A DNA stretch of 64,000 nt from Anaerolineales bacterium (GCA_016789305.1 JAEURJ010000023.1:732084-796083), one strand, 5' to 3'. Positions 8,415 to 63,546 are shown, counted from the first letter of the stretch. Made by a program: numbers and translations. Notes: a model not told the origin generated them from the sequence alone.

Positions 8415-8453
8415 GCCACAGAGAGAGAGCAGGGCTTCCTCTGCTCTCTCTCT
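8415..8453. repeat. GCCACAGAG-type repeat with hairpin; probable bidirectional terminator
   Basis: 13-bp stem 8420-8432/8441-8453 between convergent genes; begins GCCACAGAG like the 58135 element. Confidence 0.6.
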
Positions 8454-8744
8454 TTATTCTTCTTTATTTTCTATTTCCTTTCGAATGCCGTACGGGTCTT
8501 TACTTACTAATTTGAGATAACGGACATGCAACGGCATAAGCCACTTATATGAACCATCAGGCTTGCCGCATTCAACCTCAAAGTTTTTATCATTGTATTT
8601 GTCAAGCACCGTCCCTACATCGCCAATATCGACGATACCCTTTTGCCCTTTTGGGACTTTAATGATCTCAACCCAATCAAACTCTTCAATTTTTTCACGG
8701 TGATTTATGAGACTTTTCCAGAATCGCAGAATACTGTTTTTCAT
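8454..8744 (-). CDS. DUF4926-like small protein
   Basis: FDWVEII...GDVGTVLDKY...FEVECGKPDG pattern; AT-rich. Confidence 0.6.
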   Translation of the reverse strand: MKNSILRFWKSLINHREKIEEFDWVEIIKVPKGQKGIVDIGDVGTVLDKYNDKNFEVECGKPDGSYKWLMPLHVRYLKLVSKDPYGIRKEIENKEE

Positions 8745-8754
8745 TGTATTAAAA

Positions 8755-9576
8755 TTATTTTCTAAAAACTAACATCTCATCCCGCAACTCAGCTGCGGCT
8801 TTGGCGGGATTGGCCGCGCGTGAGATTCCACGTGAGACAGGGATTAACATTCCCTTCCCATCTTTTCGCAAGCCAGCTTTCATTGCGGATTCCAATTCAC
8901 CGCCTTGTGCGCCGACACCTGGGGTGAGGAACCATAGATTCGGCGCGGTCGCGCGGATTCGTTTCGTCGCTTCGATATGAGTTGCACCGACAACGAGTCC
9001 GATGTTGTTTTTGGTGTTCCAGGATTGGGCAAGCTGTGCGACGTGTTCATATAAAGGTAAGGGTGGATGGCCATCCGCCCCTACGACAGATATATCCTGC
9101 AAATCGCCGCTGCCCGGGTTGCTTGTCTTGCAAAGCAGAAAGACTCCCTTCTCTGAATTTTGAATAAATGGATCGATGGAATCTTTTCCGAGGTATGGAC
9201 TCAGCGTGATGCAATGTGCGCCCAGTGAGTCAAATGCGGATTTTGCGTACGCTTCGGCGGTGGATGAAATATCTCCGCGTTTCGCATCGAGCACGACGGG
9301 GATCAACGAGCCAAGCCTTTTTGACTCTGCGTCAATGGCTTCGATGACCTGCTTGAGCGCGGTCCAGCCTTCAGGGCCGAAGACTTCGAAGAACGCGGCG
9401 TTGGGTTTGAATGCCGCAGCATAAGGAGCTGTTTGCTTGACGAGAGTCAGGCAGAAGTCCAGTGCAGATGCGGCAGTGGGTTCCTTTAGGTCAGAGATGT
9501 GCGGGTCGAGTCCAACGCATAAAAGCGAGGAACAATCGTCGACGCGTTTTTCAAGAAAAGAGAAAAAAGATTCCAT
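8755..9576 (-). CDS. pyrF: orotidine 5'-phosphate decarboxylase
   Basis: LCVGLDP, FKPNAAFFE, DAKRGDI, TSNPGS, LVVGAT, PGVGAQGG, VSRGI. Confidence 0.95.
   Translation of the reverse strand: MESFFSFLEKRVDDCSSLLCVGLDPHISDLKEPTAASALDFCLTLVKQTAPYAAAFKPNAAFFEVFGPEGWTALKQVIEAIDAESKRLGSLIPVVLDAKRGDISSTAEAYAKSAFDSLGAHCITLSPYLGKDSIDPFIQNSEKGVFLLCKTSNPGSGDLQDISVVGADGHPPLPLYEHVAQLAQSWNTKNNIGLVVGATHIEATKRIRATAPNLWFLTPGVGAQGGELESAMKAGLRKDGKGMLIPVSRGISRAANPAKAAAELRDEMLVFRK
9057..9084. repeat. GTAG-type REP palindrome inside pyrF
   Basis: Minus strand GTAGGGGCGGATGG|CCATCCACCCTTAC; same length and similar arms as the palindrome at 59992-60019. Confidence 0.7.
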
Positions 9577-9584
9577 AGGTCTCC

Positions 9585-9640
9585 GTTGGAAAGTTGGCAG
9601 GTTCGAACGTTACAACGTTTAAACCTGCCAACCTGTAAAC
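9585..9640. repeat. inverted 8-mer tandem-repeat element between pyrB and pyrF
   Basis: Seven contiguous 8-mers GTTGGAAA/GTTGGCAG/GTTCGAAC/GTTACAAC/GTTTAAAC/CTGCCAAC/CTGTAAAC; perfect 11-bp inverted repeat 9593-9603/9622-9632. Confidence 0.8.
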
Positions 9641-9644
9641 ATTC

Positions 9645-10625
9645 TTATGCCTTGCCCAACACCATCGCCAGCAACGCCATTCTCACATACAAACCATATT
9701 CCATCTGACGGAAATACGCGGCGCGCGGATCGTCGTCAAAACTTTCACTGATCTCGCCCACGCGCGGCAGCGGATGCATAACAGCCATTTCCTTCTTCGC
9801 GGCTTTCATGATCTCGGGGTCGATCACATACGCGCCCTTGACCTTTTCATAGTCGGCGGGGTCTTCGAAACGTTCCTTTTGCACGCGGGTCACGTATAGA
9901 ATATCGGTGTCAGGCAAAACTTTTTCAAGCGAAGAATATTCGGCCTGCGGCACCTTCTTTTCAGCCACTTCGTCCATCACTTCCTTTGGCATCTTCAAAA
10001 TATCGGGAGAGACATAATTCAATTTGATGTTCTTGAAGTTCGAAAGCAAACGTGCCAGCGAATGGACAGTGCGTCCATACTTGAGATCGCCAAGCATGGT
10101 GACGTTCAAATTATCGAGCCGCCCGAGTTCCTCCATGATCGTGAAGGCATCGAGCAGCGCCTGCGTGGGATGTTCGCCGACTCCGTCGCCTGCGTTGATC
10201 ACGGGTTTCTTCGCTGCCTTCGCCGCGATGGCCGCCGAGCCCGTTTCGGGATGGCGCAGCACGATCACATCGGCATAACATTCAAGCGTGCGGATCGTAT
10301 CTGGCAGGCTCTCGCCCTTCGACACCGATGAATATTTCACTTCGCTGATCGGGATGACCGAGCCGCCGAGCCGTTCCATGGCTGCGGTGAACGAGGATGA
10401 TGTTCTGGTGGATGGTTCGTAAAACAGGTTCGCGAGAATTTTTCCCTTCAACAGATCGAACGTTCCGATGCGCTCGACCATGCCGCGCATTTCGTGTGCT
10501 ACGCCGAACACGTATTCGAGATTTTCGCGGTTGAACTGTTTGACGGAAAGAATGTCCTTGCCGTACCACTCTGCGTTCTTGTTCTCGCCGAATGGCAGGT
10601 GTGGGGATGTGGATTGAGTGGGCAT
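9645..10625 (-). CDS. pyrB: aspartate carbamoyltransferase catalytic subunit
   Basis: [45 protein letters not shown]. Confidence 0.97.
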
Positions 10626-10628
10626 TGA

Positions 10629-10675
10629 TTAGTCTCCTGGTCTTTTAGTCTGATAGTTTGTTGTCTTTTAGTTTG
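10629..10675. repeat. TAGTC/GACTA 8-mer tandem array upstream of pyrB
   Basis: TTAGTCTC/CTGGTCTT/TTAGTCTG/ATAGTTTG/TTGTCTT/TTAGTTTG. Confidence 0.7.
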
Positions 10676-10677
10676 GT

Positions 10678-10716
10678 GGTCGAGTAGCCCCGTGTTTGTC
10701 GGGGCGTATCGAGACC
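10678..10716. repeat. REP-like element GGTCGAGTAG...GTATCGAGACC
   Basis: Imperfect outer inverted repeat with inner stem GCCCCG-N7-CGGGGC. Confidence 0.6.
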
Positions 10717-10848
10717 TGATCGGGACTCTGGTTGCACGCTGGCAACGAATCTCGTTTAATCACATGGTTCACGCTTGAGCGTATCCCTGTTCGCTTCTTA
10801 CTACGGGTGAGTTGGTTCTGTTTCGATGATTCTCTTCTTTACTCGAAA

Positions 10849-11283
10849 TTAAAGCCCAATCTTTTTCACGAAGACAGAAAAATTGTTTTCTACTTCTCTC
10901 CAGTAATGTATTGTGTCGCCACTCCACCAATCGCTTGCAACTACTCTTGGGTCAATTGTATTTGTTCGATAATCTAGCGCTATTCCTATATCAGCGCCGG
11001 CTACTCGATTTACTGCAATAAATAATGCTTTGTCGACATCTAGCCACGGCAAATCTCGCTCGGAAGTTTTACCTCCTCTATATTCATGAAATAATTCGGA
11101 CATGTGAGAGTCGTCTGCCAAAAATCCTGAAGATTCTCTTCGCATTTCATCAAGATTGAGAAGAAAGTCGACAGGTTCTTGAAGAAAGGGGATAACCTGT
11201 TCTATTGTTTTGTCTGACGGTTGTTTCCAACGGCCGGTATTTATTAATTCAGCTAACAATGGAGGAGGTGTTAATTGATTCAT
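10849..11283 (-). CDS. SMI1/KNR4 (SUKH)-like immunity protein
   Basis: LFIAVNR...IALDYRTNTIDPRVVAS...WREVENNFSVFVKKIGL resembles a SUKH C-terminal half. Confidence 0.6.
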   Translation of the reverse strand: MNQLTPPPLLAELINTGRWKQPSDKTIEQVIPFLQEPVDFLLNLDEMRRESSGFLADDSHMSELFHEYRGGKTSERDLPWLDVDKALFIAVNRVAGADIGIALDYRTNTIDPRVVASDWWSGDTIHYWREVENNFSVFVKKIGL

Positions 11284-12341
11284 TCGGATTTCTCCTCATG
11301 CCCATGTCGGTGATGAATATCGGGCATGTGATTGTGATCATGCTCCTCGGCAGGATGTTCATGCTCGTGTGAGTGGACTCCTTTTGAGTCGTCGTGCCCA
11401 TGCGCGGAGTCGTCGTGACTGTGGCTGTGTTCATGAATCAATGCTGTGTGAAAATGCGTATGTTCATGGTTTTCATTGATGAGCAGTAGCGCGCCACCGA
11501 TCATCAAGATCGCGGCAATGATGAAGAAGAAAGATGGCAACTCACTGAAAATAACAATTGAAAGTAATACGCCCGCCAGCGGAGCAGTGCCATACAAGGC
11601 GCTGGTGCGCGCCGCACCCAGTCCACGCATGGAGCGGATGAAGAGCATTGTGCTCAATCCGTAACTGACAAATCCCAAGACCAATGTGCCGAGAATAATT
11701 TTCAGGGACGGCATTTGATTTCCAAGGAAAAATGCCAGCAGGAAAGAAAATGCCCCAGCGACCAATCCCTTCCATGCGACGATGGCGAGCGGGTCTTTGC
11801 CCGAGATGTTGCGCGTGAAATTATTGTCTACGCCCCACAGCACACAGGCAAGGATGATTCCCAGCGCGCCGAGTGAAATTCCAAACCCCTCGTTGAAATT
11901 TGTGGAGAGGAAAATGCTCGCCAAGGTGATAATGATGATCGCGGTCCATGCACGGCGGCTAATGGCTTCTTTGAAAAATAACATAGCAATGACCGTTGTC
12001 CCAACACCTTCGAAGTTCAGCAACAACGAAGCCGTGGATGCCGGAGTATTTTGCAAGCTGATCATCAAGATGATCGGAGCGAGGATTCCGCCCGAGATGA
12101 TCGCGCCCGCCAGCCATTTGATGTCTGGCGATTTGATATCCGCTTCTGCATTTTTGGATTGCATTCGCTGAGTTAATCTAAAGAGAAATGTCCCCGTGCC
12201 ACTACCGAGATAGAGAAAAGCCGCGAGATAGATCGGCGCAATATTGTCACCCAATAATAATTTTGCAATCGGTGCACTCGCCCCGAAGAAGAGGGCGGCG
12301 GTCAATGCTTGCAGGATGAACGTGAGATTGTTTGATTTCAT
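11280..12341 (-). CDS. EamA/DMT transporter with His-rich C-terminal tail
   Basis: About 10 TM helices, LLLNFEGV, WGVDNNFTR, and a C-terminal HEHTHFH...HHRHGH tail. Confidence 0.88.
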   Translation of the reverse strand: MKSNNLTFILQALTAALFFGASAPIAKLLLGDNIAPIYLAAFLYLGSGTGTFLFRLTQRMQSKNAEADIKSPDIKWLAGAIISGGILAPIILMISLQNTPASTASLLLNFEGVGTTVIAMLFFKEAISRRAWTAIIIITLASIFLSTNFNEGFGISLGALGIILACVLWGVDNNFTRNISGKDPLAIVAWKGLVAGAFSFLLAFFLGNQMPSLKIILGTLVLGFVSYGLSTMLFIRSMRGLGAARTSALYGTAPLAGVLLSIVIFSELPSFFFIIAAILMIGGALLLINENHEHTHFHTALIHEHSHSHDDSAHGHDDSKGVHSHEHEHPAEEHDHNHMPDIHHRHGHEEKSE

Positions 12342-12688
12342 TTTGCTTTTCCAAAATCAAACAAATGATTAGCCAGCGGAATGATGTTGATCAAAAATTC
12401 TTCGTAGGGATGATTACCCTTGATCACCTTGATGGCTTCATTGACCAATTCCCGCTTGCAGTTGACTTCGAGTTTGTATTCGGCAACTTCACTGATTTTC
12501 CCGATATCCCCTTCGAATGGGTTGGACCCTTCCAATGGACGGAAGTATCCCTGCACGGCGGAAAGAGCCACGCAATGATCATAATTTCCAATCCGTCCCA
12601 CGCCGATCTTCGCGAGTTCATCGCGGATCTGGAAGGCGTAATCCCGTGGGACAAAGATTTCGAGTTTTACATCAGTAAAGTTTTGCAT
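12338..12688 (-). CDS. YqfO/NIF3 central (PII/CutA-like) domain protein
   Basis: KLEIFVP, GVGRIGNYDHC, GYFRPLEGSNPFEG, HPYEE. Confidence 0.8.
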   Translation of the reverse strand: MQNFTDVKLEIFVPRDYAFQIRDELAKIGVGRIGNYDHCVALSAVQGYFRPLEGSNPFEGDIGKISEVAEYKLEVNCKRELVNEAIKVIKGNHPYEEFLINIIPLANHLFDFGKAK

Positions 12689-12689
12689 T

Positions 12690-13757
12690 TCAACGCTCTC
12701 TTACATTCCTTCCGTACCCTGCCTTGGCCAACACCTTTCCATCTTCAAAGGCTGTTTGTCCGCGTAATACAACTTTCCTGACTCTGCCTTTTACCTTCCA
12801 GCCTTCGAATGGAGTCCAGCCGCAGCGGGTGAATTGTTCGGATGCCTTGATCTCGTATGCTTCGTTTTCATCCACTTCAACCCACGTCTCCGGTTGTTCG
12901 GGGAGATTGAATATCTTTTGAGGATTAGTGTACGACTTCATCATAATATCATCTATCGTCAGTCGTCCATCACCCACTGCGGTGAGTAATAGTGGCAAGG
13001 CCGTTTCCAAACCGGGGAAGCCGGGCGGAGGATTATCCGAGTCTTTTTCTTCGATGGTATGTGGAGCGTGGTCGGTGGCGAAACAATCGATCACATCCAT
13101 GTTTTCCCATAAGGCAGCTACATCTTCCTTCATTGCCAATCGCGGACGGACCTCGCCGCGGCCCGGATGTCCGTGCGAAATGGATGGAATGTCATCCTTC
13201 GATAAAAATAAATGATGCGGACAAACTTCGCATGTGACCTTGATTCCCTTTTCTTTCGCGGCTTTGATCAATAAAACTTCTTCTTTGAGGGAAATATGCG
13301 CGATGTGAACGGGGCGATCATAGATTGCGGCGAATAAAATTGCTGCGGCCATCGTTCGACTTTCGGAATGTGCCACGAGCGGGTAATCCTTCGAGTACTT
13401 TTGGAAATGCGGCATCCAGAGAGTCATGTCATCGAGGCGGAGTTCCCCAAAGGTGGAGTCGAGGTACATCTTTAGCCCGGCAGCCGTCCCTGCGAGCGAG
13501 GCGGCGATGTCTGCGTTGTACGGCCCTGCGCCGATGTATTGTCCAAAGTCGCAGCGCGCTTTTTGTTTTGCGGCATTCAATGCGAGATCGAGAGTCGCAG
13601 AGTCAAAGATCGGCGGTTTGGTGTTTGGCATGGCAAGCACGATGGTAAATCCACCGGCCAGCGCAGCGGATGTGCCGGAGTCATAATCCTCTTTATGGGT
13701 TGCGCCAGGTTCGCGCAAATGAACGTGCGGGTCGATCAGGCCTGGAAGTTTGAGCAT
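12690..13757 (-). CDS. pyrC: dihydroorotase (CAD-like)
   Basis: PGLIDPHVHLREPG, MPNT, GLKMYL, CEVCPHH, TDHAPH, GFPGLET. Confidence 0.93.
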   Translation of the reverse strand: MLKLPGLIDPHVHLREPGATHKEDYDSGTSAALAGGFTIVLAMPNTKPPIFDSATLDLALNAAKQKARCDFGQYIGAGPYNADIAASLAGTAAGLKMYLDSTFGELRLDDMTLWMPHFQKYSKDYPLVAHSESRTMAAAILFAAIYDRPVHIAHISLKEEVLLIKAAKEKGIKVTCEVCPHHLFLSKDDIPSISHGHPGRGEVRPRLAMKEDVAALWENMDVIDCFATDHAPHTIEEKDSDNPPPGFPGLETALPLLLTAVGDGRLTIDDIMMKSYTNPQKIFNLPEQPETWVEVDENEAYEIKASEQFTRCGWTPFEGWKVKGRVRKVVLRGQTAFEDGKVLAKAGYGRNVRER

Positions 13758-13771
13758 GTGTTACCTTTTTG

Positions 13772-13841
13772 TGTCACCCTGAGCGGAGCGAAGGGTCTCT
13801 GTGATAATCGTAGAGATGCTTCGCTGTCGCTCAGCATGACA
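13772..13841. repeat. composite palindromic REP (TGTCA...GAGCG / CGAAG family)
   Basis: Outer TGTCACCCTGAGCG/CGCTCAGCATGACA, inner AGCGAAGGGTCTCT/AGAGATGCTTCGCT. Confidence 0.8.
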
Positions 13842-13855
13842 CGGAGCTGAAATAT

Positions 13856-13887
13856 AAAAAAAAAGAGAGCCGCTAAAAGCGACTCTC
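13856..13887 (-). terminator. intrinsic terminator (attenuator) in pyrC leader
   Basis: Minus strand GAGAGTCGC-TTTTA-GCGGCTCTC followed by 9 T. Confidence 0.85.
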
Positions 13888-13891
13888 GAAT

Positions 13892-13963
13892 TCATAAAAT
13901 AAAAATACCCATTCCAAAGAAGTGTTGACGAAAGAAACGCCTGCGGTTGGGATGTTTGTACAT
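13892..13963 (-). CDS. putative pyr leader peptide MYKHPNRRRFFRQHFFGMGIFIL
   Basis: 23-codon ORF translated by hand, lying between the promoter and the terminator; its stop ends 4 nt before the hairpin. Confidence 0.55.
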   Translation of the reverse strand: MYKHPNRRRFFRQHFFGMGIFIL

Positions 13964-13971
13964 TGCGCCGA

Positions 13972-13999
13972 ATTTTACGCGGATTTGGGGAAGTGTCAA
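13972..13999 (-). promoter_or_regulatory. sigma70-type promoter of pyrC operon
   Basis: TTGACA-N16-TAAAAT on the minus strand. Confidence 0.7.
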
Positions 14000-14079
14000 G
14001 ATGTTGACAAATTCCGTTGCAACTTTTTCGGCTTCATCCCTGTATCTCCTGTAACCTACAAAACGAAAGGAACTTTCCC

Positions 14080-14598
14080 ATGGCCGATATCTCCGCCATC
14101 TTCTTCATCCTGTTAATCATAGGCATCGCCTTTCCTGCCATGCTCACTGCGTGGTGGTTGTTGTTTCCATCCGTTGTATCGCGCGCGCAATCCCGCGTGG
14201 ATAAGACTCCCTGGGGCACGTTTGGGATGGGACTCATCATCCTGATCGCTGTGACGATTCCCATCGTCATCCTGCTCGCGCTTCCCTTCGGACCTGCGAA
14301 ATTTGCCGGCTGGATTTTGCTTGCGGCTGCGCTGGCAGTTTCTTCCATCGGCTCCGCGGGGATTGCCGCACATTTGGGTGCAAGACTTTCACGTCAAAGC
14401 ACCTTCTCTGCCTTGAGCGGATTTGTGCGCGGCTCTGTTCTGCTTGAGCTTGCTGCGTTCTTCCCGGTGCTGGGTTGGTTCTTCATCTGGCCGCTCACGA
14501 TCATCATGGCTTTCGGTGCCACCGGCTTCGCGTTCCTCAATTGGATGCCGCGCGAAAAGACTGTCCGCGTACTTGAGCCTATTTCAACTCAAGCTTAA
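14080..14598 (+). CDS. hypothetical membrane protein (4 TM)
   Basis: Start MADIS after GAAAGG; hydrophobic; lies upstream of DUF1800. Confidence 0.75.
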   Translation: MADISAIFFILLIIGIAFPAMLTAWWLLFPSVVSRAQSRVDKTPWGTFGMGLIILIAVTIPIVILLALPFGPAKFAGWILLAAALAVSSIGSAGIAAHLGARLSRQSTFSALSGFVRGSVLLELAAFFPVLGWFFIWPLTIIMAFGATGFAFLNWMPREKTVRVLEPISTQA

Positions 14599-14614
14599 TG
14601 AATCAAAGAGTATC

Positions 14615-14668
14615 TTTCTTCTTTCATCTTTGTAATTCATCCTTCAACTTTCATCCTTCATCCTTCCC
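14615..14668. repeat. TTCATCC heptamer tandem array
   Basis: TTTCTTC/TTTCATC/TTTGTAA/TTCATCC/TTCAACT/TTCATCC/TTCATCC, then TTCCC and the DUF1800 ATG. Confidence 0.8.
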
Positions 14669-16150: not shown

Positions 16151-16152
16151 CC

Positions 16153-16252
16153 ATGTCGTTGCGAGGAGCGCTCTTGTTCTTTGCGACGAAGCAACCTACT
16201 TGTTGAATTGGAGATTGCTTCGGGCGGACGAACACCGCCCTCGCAACGACAT
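16153..16252. repeat. composite palindromic REP (TGTCG..GCGAG / CGAAGCAA family)
   Basis: Perfect 14-bp terminal inverted repeat ATGTCGTTGCGAGG/CCTCGCAACGACAT; inner CGAAGCAACCT/AGATTGCTTCG. Confidence 0.85.
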
Positions 16253-16272
16253 ATTACTTTAGGAGATAACAA

Positions 16273-38327: not shown

Positions 38328-38410
38328 TTGGTCGTCTGGTCGTATAGTCTCTGGGTCGAGTGGTCGCACTGACTATATAACGATAGAACTACCCAACTAG
38401 GAGACTAAAA
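38328..38410. repeat. inverted 8-mer tandem-repeat element (GGTC/TAGTC x5 then GACTA x5)
   Basis: TTGGTCGT/CTGGTCGT/ATAGTCTC/TGGGTCGA/GTGGTCGC-ACT-GACTATAT/AACGATAG/AACTACCC/AACTAGGA/GACTAAAA. Confidence 0.75.
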
Positions 38411-38412
38411 AC

Positions 38413-40371
38413 ATGCACGGTGGGTTTGGCTGGTTTCAATATATGCGTTCGGGTGATACGAAGCCCAAAGTGACAAAAGAACTTTTACTGCGCGTCCTGA
38501 CCTATGCGCGGCCTTACTGGAATCAAATTGTGGGCATGTTGGTGATGATCCTGATCAGCGCGGGGTTGACTCTGGTTTCCCCATTGATCTTCCGCGCGAT
38601 GATCGATAAGGTCCTGCCTTCGAAGAATATTAATCAATTGATTTTATTGGCGATTGCATTGTTGTTGGTCCCAGTATTTAACGGCGTCATCGGCGTGATT
38701 CAGCGCAGATTGAACTCGACCGTCGGCGAAGGCGTGATCTTCGACCTGCGTTCGTCGCTGTTCTCGCGTTTGCAGCGCATGTCACTGCGATTTTTTACAA
38801 ATACCAAAACAGGCGAGTTGATGTCCCGACTCAACAATGACGTAGTGGGCGCGCAGAATGCGATCAGCAACACCATCGTCAATATCATCACCAACGTTAT
38901 CGAAGCCGTTGCGATCCTCGCGGTGATGCTTTCGCTGCAATGGCAGTTGACCATCCTCAGCGTGCTGATCCTGCCGTTCTTTATTCTTGCTGCGCAAAAA
39001 CTTGGCGTCACCTTGCGTGACATTGCCCGTCAGGCCATGGATCTCAACGCACAGATGAATGCGCACATGAATGAAACCCTCAACATCGGCGGCGCGTTGC
39101 TTGTTAAATTATTTGGCCGCACCAAAGAGGAGGAGAATCGTTTTCGTGACCGCGCCGCCGGCGTGCGCGATATCGGCATTCGACGCTCAGTGATCGGCTC
39201 GACCTTTTTCGTCATCCTCGGTCTCGTCAGCGCGGTGGGTACGGCCATGGTCTACGGCCTCGGCGGATATTACGTCATTCAAGGCACCTTCACCATCGGC
39301 ACCATCGTCGCCTTCGGTTCGTATCTCGGTTCGTTATACGGCGCATTGCAGGGACTCGCCGGCGCGCCTGTTGAATTTTCCACTAGCATGGTTTCGTTTG
39401 AACGAGTCTTCGAAGTCATTGACCTGCCGCAGGATATTGTTGAAAAAGAAAATGCTATTGTGCTTCATGATGTTAAAGGCGAATTGCAATTCGACAATGT
39501 AACCTTTAATTACAGCATCGACGACACCAAACTCTTGAGCGAAGTAAAACGCTATGGCAGCATGGATAATGTGGGAGCAGTGCTTTCGGGTGGCAATGGT
39601 CAGTCGACAACAGCGATCAGGCGTCGGGGAGAAGGAAGCGCTTCAGACTCAACCGAGGCTGATCCAACATCCCAGGCACGCGAAGTCGCATTGAACGGAA
39701 TCTCATTTAGATCCTCCCCCGGAGATTTGGTGGCATTGGTGGGACCTTCCGGCGCAGGCAAGACCACGGTGACATATTTGATCCCGCGCTTGTATGATCC
39801 GAGCGATGGAGTCATTCGCATTGACGGACATGATTTAAAAGATGTCACGCTTGATTCGCTTTCATCTGCGATTGGCATGGTGACGCAGGAGACATATCTC
39901 TTCCACGATACGATCCGCACCAACCTGACGTATGCGAAGGTGGACGCGACGCAGGAGGAGATCGAGGCGGCGGCGCGCGCGGCCAACATTCACAACTTCA
40001 TCATGGACCTGCCCGATGGGTACGATACCATCGTCGGGGAACGCGGCTATCGTCTAAGCGGTGGTGAGAAACAACGCATCGCGCTCGCACGAGTTATTTT
40101 AAAGAACCCAAGAATTCTGGTGCTGGATGAAGCGACCAGTTCATTGGATAGTGAATCTGAAGCACTCATTCAAGATGCGTTGAAACGAGTCATGGCAGGC
40201 CGCACAAGCATTGTCATTGCACATAGATTGTCCACGATTTTGGCAGCCAATCTGATTTTAGTCATGGATCGTGGACAGATCGTCGAGCAAGGTACGCACG
40301 ATGAATTGATCGCGCTCGACGGGTTGTACGCTCAGTTGTACGAAACGCAGTTTCGTGGGGAAAGAGTTTAA
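38413..40371 (+). CDS. ABC transporter, fused permease/ATPase (type IV exporter)
   Basis: 6 TM, Walker A GPSGAGKT, LSGGEKQR, LDEATS, IAHRL. Confidence 0.95.
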   Translation: MHGGFGWFQYMRSGDTKPKVTKELLLRVLTYARPYWNQIVGMLVMILISAGLTLVSPLIFRAMIDKVLPSKNINQLILLAIALLLVPVFNGVIGVIQRRLNSTVGEGVIFDLRSSLFSRLQRMSLRFFTNTKTGELMSRLNNDVVGAQNAISNTIVNIITNVIEAVAILAVMLSLQWQLTILSVLILPFFILAAQKLGVTLRDIARQAMDLNAQMNAHMNETLNIGGALLVKLFGRTKEEENRFRDRAAGVRDIGIRRSVIGSTFFVILGLVSAVGTAMVYGLGGYYVIQGTFTIGTIVAFGSYLGSLYGALQGLAGAPVEFSTSMVSFERVFEVIDLPQDIVEKENAIVLHDVKGELQFDNVTFNYSIDDTKLLSEVKRYGSMDNVGAVLSGGNGQSTTAIRRRGEGSASDSTEADPTSQAREVALNGISFRSSPGDLVALVGPSGAGKTTVTYLIPRLYDPSDGVIRIDGHDLKDVTLDSLSSAIGMVTQETYLFHDTIRTNLTYAKVDATQEEIEAAARAANIHNFIMDLPDGYDTIVGERGYRLSGGEKQRIALARVILKNPRILVLDEATSSLDSESEALIQDALKRVMAGRTSIVIAHRLSTILAANLILVMDRGQIVEQGTHDELIALDGLYAQLYETQFRGERV

Positions 40372-55865: not shown

Positions 55866-55968
55866 TACATCCTGAAGCGTGCCTTTCGATTTAGTATGTT
55901 GTGGCGGTTTCAAATTCGTTTATAGAATGCCAGTGACGGGTATAATTTTGAGACCAGAGGAGCCATTT

Positions 55969-56211
55969 ATGTCGATTGACGATGCCATAAAAAAAATGAC
56001 TGACCTGATCAAAGCCGCATGTGGGAGCGCGGAGATCAAATCTGCGAAGATGTCTGACGAAGAAGCGCGGCTTTCGGTGTATGCACCCGTCGGCGACATC
56101 CAGAAGATCAAGGATGCGACCTTCCAGCCCGCGATCGATATGTTGAACAAAGATGGGATGGATGTGCAGGTCTTTGTATATGACAAGGATGCGCCGCCGC
56201 TGAAAGGATGA
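55969..56211 (+). CDS. small hypothetical protein
   Basis: 80 aa after GAGGAG, with TATAAT upstream. Confidence 0.7.
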   Translation: MSIDDAIKKMTDLIKAACGSAEIKSAKMSDEEARLSVYAPVGDIQKIKDATFQPAIDMLNKDGMDVQVFVYDKDAPPLKG

Positions 56212-56250
56212 AAGGTAAAGGATGAAGGATGAAAATCCTTCGTCCTTTTT
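56204..56250. repeat. inverted AAGGATG heptamer element
   Basis: AAGGATG/AAAGGTA/AAGGATG/AAGGATG, then AAAATCC/TTCGTCC/TTTTT. Confidence 0.75.
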
Positions 56251-56253
56251 ATT

Positions 56254-57066: not shown

Positions 57067-57104
57067 TTACAAAGAGCCTCCTGTTTACAGGAGGCTCTTT
57101 GTAA
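57067..57104. terminator. bidirectional terminator
   Basis: 18-bp perfect stem TTACAAAGAGCCTCCTGT/ACAGGAGGCTCTTTGTAA. Confidence 0.85.
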
Positions 57105-57118
57105 TGTGAGTGTTTTAT

Positions 57119-58096
57119 CTAAAACGTCTTGCCGATGTACTCCGCCATTTCATTCGAAGTCCAATACCCGGTGTGGGCTGTTTTTGGATTGATCGAGGTT
57201 TGGATCTCATGATCTTCGATCAACCCCTTTTCGTTCGAGTATAGAAAATCCACGGGATAGGAGGCGATGTCGTAGCGGCTCCAAAAATTGACCCAGCGCG
57301 GCGTGCCGAGATTATCGCCCATCAACAGGCCGATGTTTTGCGGTGCGAACGTTTCGCCTTTGCGGAATTTATCCACGAGGGCCGTGGCACGCAATGTGAG
57401 CAGGCTGATCGGGGAACCGAAAGTGTACAAATGACGGATGCGCAGCCTGCCCGCCTTGATGATCTTGCGCAGCGCGTCCATTTCATCTTCGACCACGCCC
57501 TTCTCGCTGGTGTGGTCTCTCGTGGAAAACATGTGATACAGCATGTCGTGCGCGATGACACTGCCGGCGGAGTGGGCAAAGATGTTCAACGAAATATGAT
57601 CGTCGCTTTCCTTGTCCATGGCCTGGAGCGCGCGGGAGATGTGATTGAAAACGTGTTTGCGCAAATCCTTCTCTCCGTCGGCGGAGATGTAATAGAACAG
57701 ATCTGCGATGCCGAAGAATAGCAGGTCGCGTACATAGCCGGTCAGGCCGAATGGATTGGAATACGCGCCTCCCATCTTCTCCTTGACCTGCTCCTGGATC
57801 GTGCGCTCGACCTGCGCGAGATACTGGTCCGTGCCGCCGGCGGACGGTGTGGTGGGCACTCCCCAGGTGACGAAGATCGGCTTGCCTGAAAGCTTCTTGT
57901 CCGGGTACTTCCCCAGATTCTCTTTGACGAGCTTGAGAAGCTTTCTGTATTCCGCTTCGCCGCTGGAGGGGAATTTATCCGGCGAGATGCCATGAATGAA
58001 CACCGGGACCTCAACCCATTGCGGTCCCTTTTTGGGTTCCAGTTTTGCACCTCGGCTCATTTTGCCTTCATCGGGGTAGTCATCTTTTTTTGGCAT
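57119..58096 (-). CDS. alpha/beta-hydrolase-fold (lipase-like) protein
   Basis: FIHGI, AHSAG nucleophile elbow, LYTFGSPI, NFWSRYD, AHTGYW. Confidence 0.7.
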   Translation of the reverse strand: MPKKDDYPDEGKMSRGAKLEPKKGPQWVEVPVFIHGISPDKFPSSGEAEYRKLLKLVKENLGKYPDKKLSGKPIFVTWGVPTTPSAGGTDQYLAQVERTIQEQVKEKMGGAYSNPFGLTGYVRDLLFFGIADLFYYISADGEKDLRKHVFNHISRALQAMDKESDDHISLNIFAHSAGSVIAHDMLYHMFSTRDHTSEKGVVEDEMDALRKIIKAGRLRIRHLYTFGSPISLLTLRATALVDKFRKGETFAPQNIGLLMGDNLGTPRWVNFWSRYDIASYPVDFLYSNEKGLIEDHEIQTSINPKTAHTGYWTSNEMAEYIGKTF

Positions 58097-58134
58097 GGTC
58101 TCTCCTTTAGCTAAAACCTCGCGAAAGCGTTTTT

Positions 58135-58202
58135 GCCACTGAGGTCGCAGAGAAAAAGAGTTTTAAGTGCTCTTTCCCGCAAATCTCCGTGTACTCTGTG
58201 GC
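58135..58202. repeat. inverted 9-mer element (GCCACAGAG family)
   Basis: GCCACTGAG/GTCGCAGAG ... CTCCGTGTA/CTCTGTGGC. Confidence 0.7.
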
Positions 58203-58306
58203 TGTTGGCTTTGCAAGAAATCCAATACTAAAAGTATAGGGACTTTCCACGGAAAAGCAATTGTAATTTTTGACCATGCCTTATCCCCCATTTGGTTGAG
58301 TGAAAA

Positions 58307-58759
58307 TTACCCCTGGAGCGGGTACCATTCCCCGGCAAACTTCAAAATGCGCGGACGGATGTAAAAAGCGAACGGGTCGGCCTGCGGACGCTTCTCCTTG
58401 ACCAGTTCCATTGCCGCCTGCGGGGCATATCCCTGCGCGATCAGGATGCACGAGCCCATCGTCACCCCGCGGTGGACCCCTTCGGCGCAGTGGGCGTAGA
58501 CCTTTCCGCCGTTTCGGATCGTTTCGAGCGCCGCCTTCGCTCCATGGTGCAGGGCCTTAATCGGGATTGGCACCAGCGGAGAGTCGAACGTCGGAAGCCA
58601 GAGCAGTTGCAAGGGAGTCGGATGCGGGTCCCGTCGCGGCCAGCGCTCCACCCGCATGTTGATCACCAGCTTCACGCCCAAATCCCGCAGTTGGTTGTAA
58701 TCCTCCCGGGAAGGGGTGGTGCCGATGAAGAGATCGTGGGTGATCGAGGAGAAATTCAT
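58307..58759 (-). CDS. dual-specificity (Cys-based) phosphatase
   Basis: HCAEGVHR (HCxxGxxR) P-loop. Confidence 0.9.
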   Translation of the reverse strand: MNFSSITHDLFIGTTPSREDYNQLRDLGVKLVINMRVERWPRRDPHPTPLQLLWLPTFDSPLVPIPIKALHHGAKAALETIRNGGKVYAHCAEGVHRGVTMGSCILIAQGYAPQAAMELVKEKRPQADPFAFYIRPRILKFAGEWYPLQG

Positions 58760-58858
58760 GCTGAAATGGTATCACAAGACTTAATTGCAAAAAAAGCTGT
58801 ACAATGATTGGAAAATTTACTTGAAGTTATCGTTTATTTCGAGATCGGCAGGTGAGTG

Positions 58859-59758
58859 ATGGAAAACGCTTGGGTTTTATATATTATTGTCTCCATTGTT
58901 TTGATCGTCGTGGCGATGCTCTCGACGGTCATCGGCTATTTCTGGGCGTCTTCTGTCACGAAATCCGCTTTGCTCAAGCAGCTGGAAGACAAGGGCGATG
59001 ATGCCTATAAAAAGGCGCAGGAACAGCTGCAGGAGTGGAAGGAAAAGGAGCTGGCTTCCATTCAAAAACAAATTTACGATGCGGCCAAGGGACGCGCGAT
59101 CCAGGAAATGCAAGAGCAGGTAAAGGGCTGGCAGGAGAACGAGCTCAAGCAGATCCGCCAGCAGATGCTGGGCGGCGTTCAAGGGGAGGCGATCAAGGAA
59201 GCACAGAACCAGCTCGTAAAATGGAGAAATGACGACCTCGAAAATGCCAAGCGCCAGATCTGGGACGTGCTTTCGAAGGAAGCGGCACTGAAGCTCGAAC
59301 AATGGAAGATCGAAACCGAGAAGGAGATCCGCGAGGACGAATTGGAGAAGAATAAATCGGTGACGATGGGGAAACCGACCGAACACATGGTGCCCTATAT
59401 GCCCGGCTTTACCTTTAACCCGGAAGATACCCGCTTCATCGGCGGACCGATTGACCTGCTCGTCTTCGACGGGCTGGGCAATGGCGAAGTACAGAAGATC
59501 GTATTTGTGGAGGTGAAGACTGGGACCTCTGCGTTATCGCCCAAGGAACGGAATATCCGAGATGCGGTGATGGCCGGGAAAGTGGAATGGATGGAGGTCA
59601 AGGCCAGCGTGGAAGCGCCGAGCGTTGTGGTCAAAGTGCCGGAAGCCATCTTGAAGGATAATTTGAAGGACCGACCCAAAAAGAACACCGGGGCGTTGAT
59701 CTTCAACGAACTGCAGATCGACCCACCGCGGCCCTCGCGAAACCAAACGGATCACTAA
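58859..59758 (+). CDS. TM-coiled coil-PD-(D/E)xK nuclease (Holliday-junction-resolvase-like family)
   Basis: N-terminal TM, Trp-periodic helical repeats, EHMVPYMPGF.FNPEDTRFIGGPIDLLVFDG, VFVEVKTG. Confidence 0.8.
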   Translation: MENAWVLYIIVSIVLIVVAMLSTVIGYFWASSVTKSALLKQLEDKGDDAYKKAQEQLQEWKEKELASIQKQIYDAAKGRAIQEMQEQVKGWQENELKQIRQQMLGGVQGEAIKEAQNQLVKWRNDDLENAKRQIWDVLSKEAALKLEQWKIETEKEIREDELEKNKSVTMGKPTEHMVPYMPGFTFNPEDTRFIGGPIDLLVFDGLGNGEVQKIVFVEVKTGTSALSPKERNIRDAVMAGKVEWMEVKASVEAPSVVVKVPEAILKDNLKDRPKKNTGALIFNELQIDPPRPSRNQTDH

Positions 59759-59779
59759 GCAGGATCAACAGAATTTACA

Positions 59780-59810
59780 GCGGACACATCAAGCGATGTG
59801 CCCGCTTTTT
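59780..59810 (+). terminator. intrinsic terminator
   Basis: GCGGACACATC-AAGC-GATGTGCCCGC followed by TTTTT. Confidence 0.7.
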
Positions 59811-59857
59811 GTTGTGGGCCCAAAGCAGGGGAGAGTCGAAGGATGTTCGAACCTTGG

Positions 59858-59907
59858 ATATAGGGATCATATAGGCACCATATAGCCATCATATAGACGT
59901 CATATGG
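59858..59907. repeat. five ATATAG motifs at exact 11-bp period
   Basis: ATATAG starts at 59858, 59869, 59880 and 59891; ATATGG starts at 59902. Confidence 0.8.
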
Positions 59908-59990
59908 CCAGGGCGAGCCATGGCCGAAGGTTGACCGAAGCTTGAATGGAGTTGGGAGGGGGGAAGTGGTTGGAAACGTTGAAATGAAAT

Positions 59991-60020
59991 TGTAGGGGCG
60001 ACTCGCGAGTCGCCCCTACA
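59991..60020. repeat. GTAG-type REP palindrome
   Basis: Perfect 30-nt palindrome TGTAGGGGCGACTCGCGAGTCGCCCCTACA. Confidence 0.9.
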
Positions 60021-60035
60021 TGATTGATAAAGATA

Positions 60036-61034
60036 TTAACCGGCCCAGGTGGGATAAAAAATGCTAAGCAGCACGACAATTGGGATCAGGGAAATATAGG
60101 CAAATATAACGGCGAGAAAATTGATCCCCAACACCATCCACCACGATTCCGTTCTTGCTTGTTTTGTGCTGAGCGCCTGTCCAACCGTTGGCTTCTGGGA
60201 TTCGTTGTACCATAAATAAATAATGATCGGATTGACAAACGTGATTGGAATCACGAACAGCGGGTTGATCGAGGCGAAAAAAATGGCGATGGAAGCGCTG
60301 ATGGCAAGAGAAACCAGGTGCCCGATAAATCCGAAGATCACGCTTGCCAGGGCATGGTCTTTAGCGTGCAGACGGCTGTGATTGATCGCGATCATCACGG
60401 CTCCCGCCAAAAAACCGCCGAACAGTGCGGTGATCGCGGCCTGCCAGATCGAAAAGAAACGCGGCAGATTTTGGTAGGTCTGCGTTGCGTTGAGGTTATC
60501 CATAAAGCGCTGTTTTTGCGTTTCGAATTCCTCCCCGCTGAGGATGCCCTCATCTTTTAATAGCTTCAACTTCCTGAGGCCTTCAACATCATCATCGGGT
60601 CGAGCGGTTTCCGTCCGCTTTTCGGACGGCAGCACCGACAGGCTTAGGAATCTTTGTGTACGCTCTTCGTCTTCCGCGGTCGGCTGATAAAACAGGCGGG
60701 CGATCCATGAAGCGATCCATGTGATGATGTAGGCCGCGAGAGGTGCTCCCAGCAATATCACTGAAATGGGAAGAGCGATCCACCACTTTTGGCGCAGAAC
60801 GGCGGTCAAGATAAGGGAAGACAGGCTGACGATCACCGCCAGGATGAACGGGAGGACAAACACGCCAAAAAGATCCATGGAGAGCTGGCTCGGGTCCTGG
60901 AATATCGGTCCCCCGGTGGTCAGAACGATGAGCATCATCAGTGCCCAGCATGAAATCACCATGCCGCTAATGGAAAGGAAAAGAAGGAATATGAAGTTTC
61001 TTCTTGGGAAAAAATGATTGCTTGATGTAGACAT
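60036..61034 (-). CDS. membrane protein with internal SHOCT-like helix
   Basis: TM block, EGLRKLKLLKDEGILSGEEFETQKQR, then a second TM block; GGAG RBS. Confidence 0.75.
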   Translation of the reverse strand: MSTSSNHFFPRRNFIFLLFLSISGMVISCWALMMLIVLTTGGPIFQDPSQLSMDLFGVFVLPFILAVIVSLSSLILTAVLRQKWWIALPISVILLGAPLAAYIITWIASWIARLFYQPTAEDEERTQRFLSLSVLPSEKRTETARPDDDVEGLRKLKLLKDEGILSGEEFETQKQRFMDNLNATQTYQNLPRFFSIWQAAITALFGGFLAGAVMIAINHSRLHAKDHALASVIFGFIGHLVSLAISASIAIFFASINPLFVIPITFVNPIIIYLWYNESQKPTVGQALSTKQARTESWWMVLGINFLAVIFAYISLIPIVVLLSIFYPTWAG

Positions 61035-61152
61035 CCGCCGCTCCTGCCTTGTTCTTGTGATTGCTTGAATATATTATAAACATTGTGTCTGCTTTTTGGT
61101 TGATCTTCTCTATGTTTTACTACAAGGTCGCATATGAGGAAGCTGAGAGAAT

Positions 61153-61220
61153 GTTGGAACGTTTGAAGGTTTGAAAGTGGGAAGTAACCTCCGCAAGTTG
61201 AGGTGCAAGCGGTCGAAACC
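61153..61220. repeat. GTTGGAAC-type 8-mer array plus TTGAG...GTCGAAACC REP-like motif
   Basis: GTTGGAAC/GTTTGAAG/GTTTGAAA/GTGGGAAG, then AGTTGAGGTGCAAGCGGTCGAAACC. Confidence 0.55.
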
Positions 61221-61386
61221 AGCAGTGAAAAGTAAATATAAGATTCAATGATGTGGTCTCTCTCTACGAGGACTTCGCGATATGCCTCGTGAAGAACACG
61301 CAAGGCTGCTCAACCACCGTCAACAATTTTCTTTCATCTTTCTTCTTTTTCTCCCCTCCGTAGCTAAAATCTGCTACACTCCGCAC

Positions 61387-63009
61387 ATGGAAACCCTCTC
61401 CTCCGCGCTTGACCCCAACTCCGATGAATTCAAAGCCAATGCAGAACATAACCGTGCGCTCACGGCTGAACTTAGAAATCGTCTTGCGCTTGTGCGACAG
61501 GGCGGCGGTGAGAAATATCGTCAACGCCATGAGGAGCAGGGGAAATTATTTGTGCGCGAACGCATCGAACGATTGCTCGATCCCGGTGCGCCGTTCCTCG
61601 AACTCTCTGCGCTTGCGGCGGGCGATATGTATAAAGGAGAGGCGCCAAGTGCAGGTATTGTCACCGGCATCGGGCGTGTTTCGAATCGTGAAGTGATGAT
61701 CGTGGCCAACGATGCCACGGTCAAGGGTGGCTCGTATTTTTCGATGACCGTCAAGAAACATTTGCGCGCGCAACAGATCGCGGAAGAAAATCATCTGCCC
61801 TGTCTGTATCTCGTCGATTCAGGCGGGGCCTTTTTGCCGCTGCAGGATGAGGTCTTTCCCGACGCACATCACTTCGGCCGCATCTTCTACAATCAGGCGC
61901 GCATGTCTGCGAAGCGCATTCCGCAGATCGCGGCGGTGATGGGCAATTGCACGGCGGGCGGCGCGTACGTCCCGGCGATGAGCGATGAAGCGATCATTGT
62001 CAAAGGCGCGGGCACGATCTTCTTGGGTGGTCCGCCGTTAGTAAAAGCCGCGACCGGTGAAGATGTCACTGCGGAAGAATTGGGCGGCGCGGATGTGCAC
62101 ACACGAAAATCGGGTGTTGCGGATCATTTTGCGGAGGACGACGATCATGCGATCGAAATCCTGCGGGGAATCGTTGAAACGCTGCAACGTTCACACGTGA
62201 ACACGCATCTTTCCACGCTGGAAGTTGCTCCGCCGGAAGAACCTTTATACGCCGCTGACGAATTGTACGGCGTCCTGCCGCGTACGTTTAAAGAATCGTA
62301 TGACGTCCACGAGATCATCGCGCGCATCGTGGATGGCAGCAAGTTCCGCGAGTTCAAGGCGCGCTATGGCACAACGATCGTTTGTGGTTTTGCACGTATT
62401 CATGGATACCCCGTGGGTATCATCGCGAATAACGGTGTTTTATTTAGCGAGTCTGCACTGAAAGCGACTCACTTTATTGAGTTGTGTGATCAACGCGGGA
62501 TTCCGCTTTTATTTTTACAGAACATCACCGGCTTCATGGTTGGCAAGGAGTATGAAACTGGCGGCATCGCCAAGGACGGCGCGAAGATGGTCCATGCGGT
62601 GGCGACGACGCGTGTTCCAAAGTTAACATTGGTCATCGGCGGCTCGTTTGGTGCCGGTAATTACGCGATGGCGGGCCGTGCGTACGGTTCACGCTTCCTA
62701 TGGATGTGGCCGAATGCGCGCATCTCGGTGATGGGCGGAGAACAGGCCGCGAATGTGCTCTTAACCATCAAGCAGGATCAACTCACTCGCGAAGGTAAAC
62801 CAGCTCTCAGTGCGAAAGAAGCGGAAGATTTCAAGCGTCCACTATTGGAAAAATATGAAACCGAAGGCAGTCCCTATCATTCCAGTGCAAGATTATGGGA
62901 CGACGGTGTCATCGCTCCGGATGAGACACGTCAGGTGTTGGGGCTGGCTTTGTCGATTGTGTTGAATTCGCCGAAGGAAGAGGGTGGGTTTGGGGTGTTT
63001 AGGATGTAA
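61387..63009 (+). CDS. mccB: methylcrotonyl-CoA carboxylase beta (carboxyltransferase) subunit
   Basis: [55 protein letters not shown]. Start placed at METLS. Confidence 0.9.
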
Positions 63010-63036
63010 GGTATGGAAAGTAGTTAGTGGTGAGTG
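63009..63036. repeat. left heptamer array flanking four-helix-bundle gene
   Basis: (AGGTATG)/GAAAGTA/GTTAGTG/GTGAGTG. Confidence 0.6.
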
Positions 63037-63046
63037 GAGGATTGGC

Positions 63047-63523
63047 GTGAAGTATTTGGAATGGCAAGCTGGTGTTTCGGATGAAATCAAGGGCGATTCA
63101 CTTTGGAGGCTTGAAGTATATCGTCTTGCGTTATTTGCATCTGATATTGCATGGCAGGATGCGTTTGTTTTGAATAAGACGCCACTGACTCGCTCTTTGG
63201 CAGACCAACTCTATCGCGCAGTTTGTTCAATTTCTGCTAATATTGCCGAAGGCTATTCCCGTTCGACAGGAAAAGACCGCGCACGATTTCTGGAGTACTC
63301 CCTTGGTTCTGCTCGTGAAGCACGCGATTGGTATTTCAACTCCCATCACACTTTAAAAGAAGAAGTTGTAAATCATCGAATTAATTTATTGACTCAAATT
63401 ATCAAGATGTTAAGTATTCTTACACCCAACCAGCGCCAAAAAGGAATTCGAGAAGAGCAAACCGAGTACATCACTTTACTATCATCAGATTTCAATTTCG
63501 ATTCAGAGATTCCATTCTCTTAA
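63047..63523 (+). CDS. four helix bundle protein (23S-IVP/bAvd-like family)
   Basis: LEVYRLA, DQLYRAVCSISANIAEGYSR, FLEYSLGSAREARDW. GTG start after GGAGG. Confidence 0.9.
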   Translation: MKYLEWQAGVSDEIKGDSLWRLEVYRLALFASDIAWQDAFVLNKTPLTRSLADQLYRAVCSISANIAEGYSRSTGKDRARFLEYSLGSAREARDWYFNSHHTLKEEVVNHRINLLTQIIKMLSILTPNQRQKGIREEQTEYITLLSSDFNFDSEIPFS

Positions 63524-63525
63524 CT

Positions 63526-63546
63526 CACTTTCTACTTTCTACTTAC
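63526..63546. repeat. right (inverted) heptamer array flanking four-helix-bundle gene
   Basis: CACTTTC/TACTTTC/TACTTAC, the reverse complement of GAAAGTG/GAAAGTA/GTAAGTA. Confidence 0.7.

Follow-up and report, generated by a model that had tools for sequence, protein, structure and literature searches.

A four-helix-bundle gene between inverted short tandem arrays, and candidate gene-less relatives, at gene junctions of an Anaerolineales genome

The elements described here were met in a stretch of 64,000 nucleotides from an Anaerolineales bacterium (C24:732084-796083 of genome G000, assembly size 4.88 Mb), which is called the window and within which all positions given without a contig name are counted. 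They are degenerate tandem arrays of short units at gene junctions, and one inverted pair of them encloses a gene for a four-helix-bundle protein of family PF05635. To our knowledge, PF05635 is a large family without known function, and there is no accepted explanation for the heptamer repeats of bacteria. A precedent of the short tandem, heptamer-type kind, the short tandemly repeated repetitive (STRR) sequences of cyanobacteria, was reportedly described by Mazel et al. in 1990.

The 23S rRNA intervening sequence (IVS) of Coxiella, closed by a terminal stem of 28 bp, contains tandem heptamers as well as an S23p open reading frame (ORF) and is cleaved by RNase III (Warrier et al. 2016, PMC4990558). 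In Xanthomonas, GGGAATC heptamers form 70-75 convergent pairs (Rehm et al. 2015, PMC4692102), and paired tandem octa-, nona- and heptanucleotide sites have been reported from Geobacter metallireducens (Aklujkar et al. 2009, PMC2700814). Avd, a relative of S23p, is the pentameric nucleic-acid-binding cofactor of diversity-generating retroelements (DGRs; PMC10053308). No literature linking such arrays to cargo of the PF05635 or GxxExxY families was found. Here we present the loaded cassette of the window, its counterparts in other genomes and the gene-less arrays that accompany it.

The loaded cassette and its counterparts in other genomes

The cassette occupies positions 63010-63548 on the plus strand. 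Its 5' arm (63010..63046), a C-free, degenerate array of 7-8-nt units (GGTATGGAAAGTAGTTAGTGGTGAGTGGAGGATTGGC), begins directly after the TAA (63007-63009) of a carboxyltransferase gene and contains the Shine-Dalgarno sequence GGAGGA of the cargo gene (63047..63523), which has a GTG start and encodes 158 aa. The G-free 3' arm, CTCA(CTTTCTA)2CTTACTA (63524..63548), starts at the stop codon of the cargo gene and has a period of 7 with 3.1 copies in Tandem Repeats Finder (TRF); its units are reverse-complement matches to GAAAGTAGAAAGTA in a pattern search. Arms and cargo gene together take up the whole spacer behind the carboxyltransferase stop codon except for its last 9 nt, after which comes the ATG (63558) of a DUF1579 gene. 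When the whole cassette is folded, 63010-63046 pairs with 63524-63548 in both the minimum free energy and the centroid structure.

The cargo protein matches PF05635 (23S rRNA intervening-sequence protein / S23p / Avd-like) with 59.7 bits against a cut-off of 33.8; the match covers residues 70-144 of the long ORF, and a genome-wide profile search returns the same locus. The AlphaFold model (alignment-based monomer) has a predicted local distance difference test (pLDDT) value of 83, with a core above 90. Best Foldseek matches are 2RLD_B and 2GSC_E of the S23p family, with target-normalised template-modelling (TM) scores of 0.85-0.90 and root-mean-square deviations of 1.7-2.0 A. A target-normalised TM score of 0.79 is reached with 8UB7_E, which belongs to a DGR ribonucleoprotein entry and is probably the Avd chain. 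A sequence-only reading of the window had proposed that repeats at 63009 and 63526 bracket a four-helix-bundle gene, and both the PF05635 match and the predicted fold, similar to 2RLD and 2GSC, bear this out. Orthologues of the 5' arm are present in the related genomes G018 and G008, and the orthologous protein of G018 is 83% identical. The protein tail, QRQKGIREEQTEYI, is related to a conserved subfamily tail, ..YLK(R/E)SKQGxNEPGANHxVREE..Y.., which is found in relatives at loci L014, L015, L019, L020, L025, L031, L120 and L121 and survives at C22:130500-130652.

Genome G000 carries four PF05635 genes, all of them between inverted arrays and each with a different unit. The family is present in 25 of 31 related genomes, from which 92 loci were inspected and 87 entered the flank statistics. 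A second set, found via the closer subfamily alignment, comprises 80 inspected loci (76 in the flank statistics) from Chloroflexota, Acidobacteriota, Planctomycetota, Nitrospirota, Cyanobacteriota, Bacteroidota and other phyla. A screen of flanks by duplex energy was noisy and gave no bulk enrichment, and an alignment-based score was therefore adopted in its place, with a Smith-Waterman (SW) score of at least 22 as the cut-off for complementary flanks. As controls served 4542 genes outside the family, since a null of permuted four-helix-bundle flanks is inflated by the unit families that the loci share. The cut-off is reached by 67% of the 87 genes from relatives and 63% of the 76 multi-phylum genes, compared with 1.0% of the controls (Fisher p 2e-82). 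Strong tandem periodicity marks about 30% of the flanks of the relatives' genes and 24-36% of those from other phyla, against 0.4% of controls, with 7 as the commonest period. Three of the four PF05635 genes of G000 rank 6th, 12th and 14th of 4546 genes by SW flank complementarity; the copy in the window lies below the SW cut-off and is 14th of 4546 in the noisy duplex-energy screen.

The suggestion that the repeat families of the window flank cargo genes elsewhere holds for four-helix-bundle genes and, as described below, for GxxExxY genes of sister genomes. Arms of the GTTNNAAC type enclose four-helix-bundle genes in G008, G010, G014 and G011, GGATGAA/TTCATCC arms do so in G001 (L153, L155), and TAGTC/GACTA units also serve as arms of such genes in sister genomes. 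Among cassettes at different junctions, the share of pairs with similar arms rises from 1% at less than 45% identity of the cargo proteins to 4% at 45-60% and 30% at 60-75%. In orthologous cassettes the arms stay complementary while their units change, as seen at the pheS-pheT junction in six genomes, the E2 junction in four and the window junction in three. By these comparisons the arms co-diverge with the cargo, and cassette and arms appear to be gained, lost and relocated as a unit. A stem that replaces a lost Shine-Dalgarno sequence was considered and rejected: the sequence is present in 46% of the genes downstream of cassettes and in 52% of controls, a difference that is not significant.

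A second cargo follows the same design. The sole PF13366 gene of G000 (GxxExxY, PD-(D/E)XK nuclease; C24:638098-638508) lies between inverted 9-mer arrays, and 86% of 28 GxxExxY genes, this single copy included, have complementary flanks. The best lag is 9-11 in 45 of 55 GxxExxY flanks, compared with 7-8 in 147 of 177 four-helix-bundle flanks (p 2e-18); the arm period is thus cargo-specific, with 7-8-nt units around four-helix-bundle genes and 9-10-nt units around GxxExxY nuclease genes. On this basis the families of the window are divided into a four-helix-bundle class (GTTNNAAC, TAGTC, GGATGAA and GWRAGTR) and a nuclease class (GCCACAGAG). Terminal arms of the form GCCACAGAG..CTCTGTGGC enclose PF13366 genes in G008, G002 and G007 (L197, L199, L200), and it is these inverted 9-10-nt arms that are matched by a hairpin of the window on the minus strand (58135..58203; fold -24.9 kcal/mol, z -2.8). 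The hairpin is imperfect, with arms of 2-3 degenerate 9-mers (AGCCACAGAG TACACGGAG .. CTCTGCGAC CTCAGTGGC); between them there is no PF13366 gene, the loop being only 9 nt long. Another gene-less member of this family lies at C18:213958.

Gene-less arrays and the history of their junctions

The sequence-only reading listed ten degenerate tandem arrays in five unit families. All ten sites are present on inspection, and the five families are real and dispersed over many loci of the genome; TRF (score of at least 30) calls six of the sites, leaving those at 8415, 9585, 58135 and 63010 unscored. The called arrays are 10629-10672 (period 8), 14612-14666 (period 7, 8 copies), 38329-38366 (period 8), 56204-56233 (period 7), 61149-61175 (period 8) and 63527-63548 (period 7). 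The enrichment over shuffled intergenic DNA that the reading had anticipated is found genome-wide, with 37 intergenic arrays of period 7 (about 6 after local shuffling), 34 of period 8 (about 11) and 31 of period 9 (about 7), as well as in the window, with seven intergenic arrays against 1.1 expected from the genome average (TRF; Poisson p 1.5e-4). Compared with 100 shuffles of the window, the TAGTC family has 11 matches (1.0 expected) and GAAAGTA three (0.13 expected), numbers reached in none of the shuffles; GGATGAA has five (0.8 expected) and AACGTT nine (2.6 expected), each reached in one. The related units that had been reported in frame within DUF1501 and other genes dissolve on this comparison, their matches (16525, 54393 and 62170-62199, with 1-2 mismatches) being no more numerous than in shuffles.

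The stability of hairpins was judged by fold energy together with a z value against shuffles. Between pyrB and pyrF lies a gene-less hairpin of GTTNNAAC 8-mers (9585..9640, minus strand; -28.1 kcal/mol, z -5.0) with a 14-bp stem, in which GTTGGCAGGTT (9593-9603) pairs with AACCTGCCAAC (9622-9632), and without a U tail. An array hairpin follows pyrB in most of 13 genomes (12 on inspection), invariably with the G-rich arm leading and with a unit family that changes between genomes. The 5' leader of pyrB is itself a solo, G-poor 8-mer array of GACTAAAA type in mRNA sense (10629..10690, minus strand; TRF and pattern search), unstructured when folded and including the ribosome-binding site (AGGAGACTAA). 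GACTAA-type leader arrays that likewise include the ribosome-binding site precede pyrB in at least five congeners. Ahead of the array stands a leader block conserved throughout the genus (10700-10790, minus strand; ..GTGATTAAACGGGAT.CG...CAGCGTGCAA.C..AGTCCCGAT..), which could be a pyrimidine attenuator; an Rfam scan of the window, this leader included, gave no family match at threshold. The 10629 array is also adjoined by a small repeat, GGTCTCGATAC-[GC-rich hairpin]-CTACTCGACC (10676-10716, minus strand), seen again at C18:24176-24300 and in locus L149 of a relative.

A solo, G-poor array of eight TTCATCC-type heptamers (14612..14666, plus strand; TRF score 47, unstructured fold) runs up to the ATG (14669) of a DUF1800 gene. 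Five genomes have G-poor heptamer arrays directly before the ATG of DUF1800, each genome with units of its own; the relatives concerned are G010, G008, G005 and G021, and the array of G021 has a 5' partner. An inverted partner of the 14612 array itself, 1.8 kb away inside DUF1501, was discarded as a low-complexity AAAGAAG match that forms no bracket. A third solo array, C-poor and unstructured (AATGTTGG AACGTTTG AAGGTTTG AAAGTGGG AAGTAACC; 61149..61190, plus strand; 3.4 copies by TRF, with pattern matches), precedes the carboxyltransferase gene by about 90 nt. The sequence-only reading had several arrays followed directly by their reverse complement. This stands for the gene-less 8-mer pair at 38329..38407 (plus strand, pattern matches on both strands), where TGGTC/TAGTC units (38329-38364) are followed by GACTA/AACTA units (38372-38407). 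The arrays at 10629, 14612 and 61149 are solo. The second array of the 38329 pair holds the ribosome-binding site (CTAGGAGACTAA) of a gene starting at 38413, and its ending, '..gactaggagactaaa..ATG', also closes the 3' arms of the four-helix-bundle cassettes L126 and L137. Folding of 38329-38407 pairs both arrays, yet no better than in shuffles (z -1.3).

A GGATGAA heptamer array of 4.3 copies (56204..56253, plus strand; TRF; -22 kcal/mol, z -5.3) overlaps the stop codon of the upstream ORF, and its last units pair with TCCTTCGTCCTTT, after which follows the U run UUUUUAUU. Between convergent genes lies an (AG)n/(CT)n hairpin, AGAGAGAGAGCAG/CTGCTCTCTCTCT (8413..8472, plus strand; -28.3 kcal/mol, z -5.3), which opens with AGCCACAGAG (TAGCCACAGAG, as in the 9-mer family) and has the U-rich tail UUUAUUCUUCUUUAUUUU; TRF finds no tandem 9-mers in it, and it shares just the first unit with that family. 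Both read as ordinary intrinsic terminators, a predicted stable stem-loop and then a U tract at a gene end. For solo TRF arrays, placement and polarity with respect to the neighbouring genes gave too small and mixed a sample, and the polarity of hairpins is the informative test: genome-wide, the G-rich arm comes first in 22 of 27 hairpins with periodic arms, as in the cassettes (p 0.0015), compared with 181 against 139 in other hairpins (difference p 0.014).

Polymorphism between filled and empty sites was the comparison that the sequence-only reading had proposed among relatives. It exists at the window's own junction and is joined by one decayed cassette, whereas the other array junctions of the window were filled in none of the relatives sampled. 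G000, G018 and G008 carry a cassette at the carboxyltransferase/DUF1579 junction; four loci lack one (two in G003 and one each in G010 and G009), and there the spacer consists of other small palindromes or another ORF. The decayed cassette (C22:130500-130710), at another junction that relatives have filled, retains approximately the last 47 codons of a four-helix-bundle gene (tblastn E 2.7e-11) along with a 3' arm that stands alone. Among the junctions of G000 that carry four-helix-bundle cassettes in relatives, seven are clean and five have palindromes resembling repetitive extragenic palindromic (REP) sequences. Two have 9-mer array hairpins: pheS-pheT and C24:41927. The latter also has a TTCATCC-type solo array before the ATG, at the place where G017 has a four-helix-bundle cassette with TTCATTC-type arms. 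Scored objectively for periodicity, 2 of 18 relative-filled junctions have arrays, against a background of 1% (p 0.013).

Other small repeats share these spacers. The REP-like palindromes GTAGGGRC..GYCCCTAC occur in about 38 spacers of G000 (e.g. C16:52246, C18:160278, C3:697947 and C5:311988), and GCTCTGTCGGGGGCTAAGCCCCCGACAGAGC marks a second hairpin family. A palindrome resembling a miniature inverted-repeat transposable element (MITE), TGTCGTTGCGAGG .. CCCTCGCAACGACA, lies at approximately 16153-16255 between DUF1800 and DUF1501; related elements, 'CATTGCGAGCC..GGCGAAGCAATC' and 'GTCATCCTGAGCG..', fill the unfilled cassette junction in G003 and G010. An 11-mer tandem array, ATATAGGCATC (59858-59905, 4.4 copies), lies between convergent genes, with a family member at C16:2994, and further 11-mer families (TAATCCTGTAC, TGTACGAAGGA) are dispersed in the genome; a period of 11 is more suggestive of protein-binding sites in helical phase than of cassette arms. 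Small ORFs on one strand with attC-like inverted sites (GTAACGCAAACCGTTAGCC .. GGCTAACAAAGCGTGCAC) occur at C3:133974-144173, in a row that looks like an integron cassette array, as well as at C12:409022 and C5:390302.

Explanations for the arrays

Given the observed architecture, its generality, the filled/unfilled polymorphism and the one decayed copy, we consider it probable that a class of hairpin-armed mini-cassettes with two classes of cargo occupies gene junctions in this lineage, and that the window contains one complete member of it along with several that are half or gene-less. We read the gene-less arrays as putative relatives of the cassettes, with which they share unit families in the arms of sister genomes. 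Most of them would be independent, MITE-like occupants of permissive junctions, or products of the same repeat-making process there, and a few would be scars left in situ. Several may now act as intercistronic stem-loops, as terminators (8415, 56204) or as leaders (10629, 14612). By analogy with the ORF-bearing IVS of 23S rRNA, the arms would pair in the transcript with the cargo looped out, leaving a stem that RNase III may cleave. The cargo proteins would act on their own arrays, much as the sequence-only reading had it with its binder or mobiliser; the cargo-specific period and the co-divergence of arms and cargo favour this indirectly. A bolder form of this proposal is put forward tentatively, and we are inclined to doubt it: that each cargo protein, four-helix-bundle or GxxExxY nuclease, recognises arrays of its own unit length or contributes to their formation, that cassettes and the far more numerous gene-less hairpins are autonomous and non-autonomous partners in one system of elements that colonise junctions, and that across phyla they are the source of much of the intergenic short-repeat excess.

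Several observations weigh against the mini-cassette proposal. At the window's other array junctions no cargo was found among about 90 four-helix-bundle and 27 nuclease cassettes mapped in 30 relatives, nor were four-helix-bundle coding remnants found near those arrays; the array junctions at pyrB and DUF1800 have no cargo gene in any of the relatives sampled. G003 is without PF05635 and PF13366 genes, yet has a heptamer-array hairpin after pyrB, and in G000 itself most array families have no cognate cargo gene. The occupants of a junction often belong to the other class of arm: 9-mer hairpins occupy sites where relatives have 7-mer four-helix-bundle cassettes, and AACGTT 8-mer hairpins lie at two junctions of G000 where relatives hold 9-mer nuclease cassettes. 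REP-like elements are present at 4 of 18 relative-filled junctions against a background of 0.8%, and therefore the permissiveness of these junctions accounts for part of the co-location. No target-site duplication appears on comparing empty and filled E2 junctions, and no transposase, no movement and no cognate REP-associated tyrosine transposase (RAYT) was seen. Mismatches in the arms are G:U-compatible in 54 cases and of the opposite type in 58, an absence of asymmetry by which pairing as RNA is not specifically supported.

These points feed two rival explanations of the gene-less arrays. They may be simple-sequence repeats made by slippage, together with ordinary terminator and attenuator hairpins, while cassettes are just tolerated at permissive junctions and acquire their arms by the same slippage. 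Among long simple-sequence repeats, heptamers are the most frequent in many bacteria, and polymerase slippage has been proposed as their origin (cited in PMC4679880 and PMC4692102). The leader arrays of pyrB, which persist genus-wide without cargo, look as if the sequence beside the ribosome-binding site, GGAGACTAA, had been copied in tandem, and the 5' arm units at the E2 junction resemble the local TAGTTGATGG; the U tails of 8415 and 56204, the REP-like hot spots at relative-filled junctions and the array hairpins of G003 fit as well. What slippage does not predict is that the period depends on the cargo (7-8 against 9-10), that arms follow the phylogeny of the cargo across different junctions, that gene-less hairpins and cargo arms have unit families in common, or that the G-rich arm comes first in both. 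The second cargo family with its own repeat period in particular argues that the repeats are not generic products of slippage, and we regard this explanation as unlikely. Still less probable is the one closest to the sequence-only reading, in which the gene-less arrays of the window are empty footprints of cassettes that lost their cargo at that very junction. The C22 copy proves one such case elsewhere, C24:41927 has its solo array where G017 has a cassette, the unit families are shared, and G-poor arrays without a partner (14612, and 10629 in mRNA sense) lie against a start codon, in the place of a 3' arm. Against this stand the lack of any mapped cassette or coding remnant at these junctions, the age and stable position of the cargo-free arrays at pyrB and DUF1800, the hairpins of G003, and the hairpins at pheS-pheT, C13:77582 and C5:309520, whose arm class differs from that of the relatives' cassettes at the same sites. 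With the arm class so often different, the gene-less hairpins are not simple deletion products in situ of the relatives' cassettes.

A role for the host has also to be weighed, the arrays being paired tandem sites for a host regulator or leader and attenuator RNAs of host genes, and their link to cassettes secondary. The paired octa-, nona- and heptanucleotide sites of Geobacter metallireducens, on opposite strands, have been interpreted as sites of a global regulator (PMC2700814), and the TAACTGA repeats of Beggiatoaceae, just upstream of start codons, as post-transcriptional signals (PMC4679880); the stable position of arrays upstream of pyrB and DUF1800 would agree with either. A conserved regulator site is nevertheless a poor fit to a unit that varies by genome at one orthologous position and to many unit families within one genome, and the window has no Rfam match, so that we hold this explanation to be very improbable.

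Under the mini-cassette proposal, the locus and its relatives connect the PF05635 family with the heptamer repeats. For annotation, this accounts for many odd short-repeat spacers, terminators and leaders. If it is true that the cargo acts on the arrays, they would represent a new class of minimal insertable elements at cistron boundaries and would offer a handle on the origin of rRNA intervening sequences.

Comparison with described systems

The heptamer repeats of Xanthomonas, Geobacter and Beggiatoaceae resemble the arrays of the window in being degenerate intergenic tandems of 7-9 nt, often in pairs on opposite strands, variable in length between relatives and often close to start codons. 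They differ in that no cargo gene is named for them in PMC2700814, PMC4692102 or PMC4679880, whereas here there are two cargo families with cargo-specific periods. With MITEs and REP sequences the elements share that small non-coding palindromes lie at junctions and vary in presence between relatives, the gene-less hairpins being independent occupants there. Unlike MITEs and REPs, they have no target-site duplication, their copies share the type of unit and not the sequence, and their arms are internally repetitive; true REP-like hairpins (GTAGGG..CCCTAC) form a separate family in G000. The likeness to Avd lies in the homologous four-helix-bundle fold, seen in the match of the predicted model to 8UB7_E, and the difference in that no reverse transcriptase, template repeat or variable repeat occurs near the four-helix-bundle gene of the window. 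We know of no description of Avd genes with inverted tandem arms.

The cassettes are widespread and barely described, and the nearest published system is the ORF-bearing IVS of 23S rRNA, known from Coxiella burnetii and Leptospira (PMC4990558). Both have the same PF05635/S23p cargo and an inverted-repeat stem with the ORF in its loop, both exist in gene-less and gene-bearing forms, and the IVS has been proposed to have once been a mobile element (PMC4990558). In the IVS, tandem heptamers whose number varies between strains lie upstream of the ORF, and here the 3' arm has a period of 7 and the 5' arm is a degenerate 7-8-nt array. The IVS is inserted in an rRNA helix, whereas the element of the window lies between carboxyltransferase and DUF1579 genes, in a window free of rRNA and Rfam matches. 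Cutting by RNase III is known for the IVS; in the cassettes described here both arms are tandem arrays that abut the stop and start codons of the neighbouring genes, the unit families are many, and a second cargo, the GxxExxY nuclease, is carried between arms of the same design with longer units.

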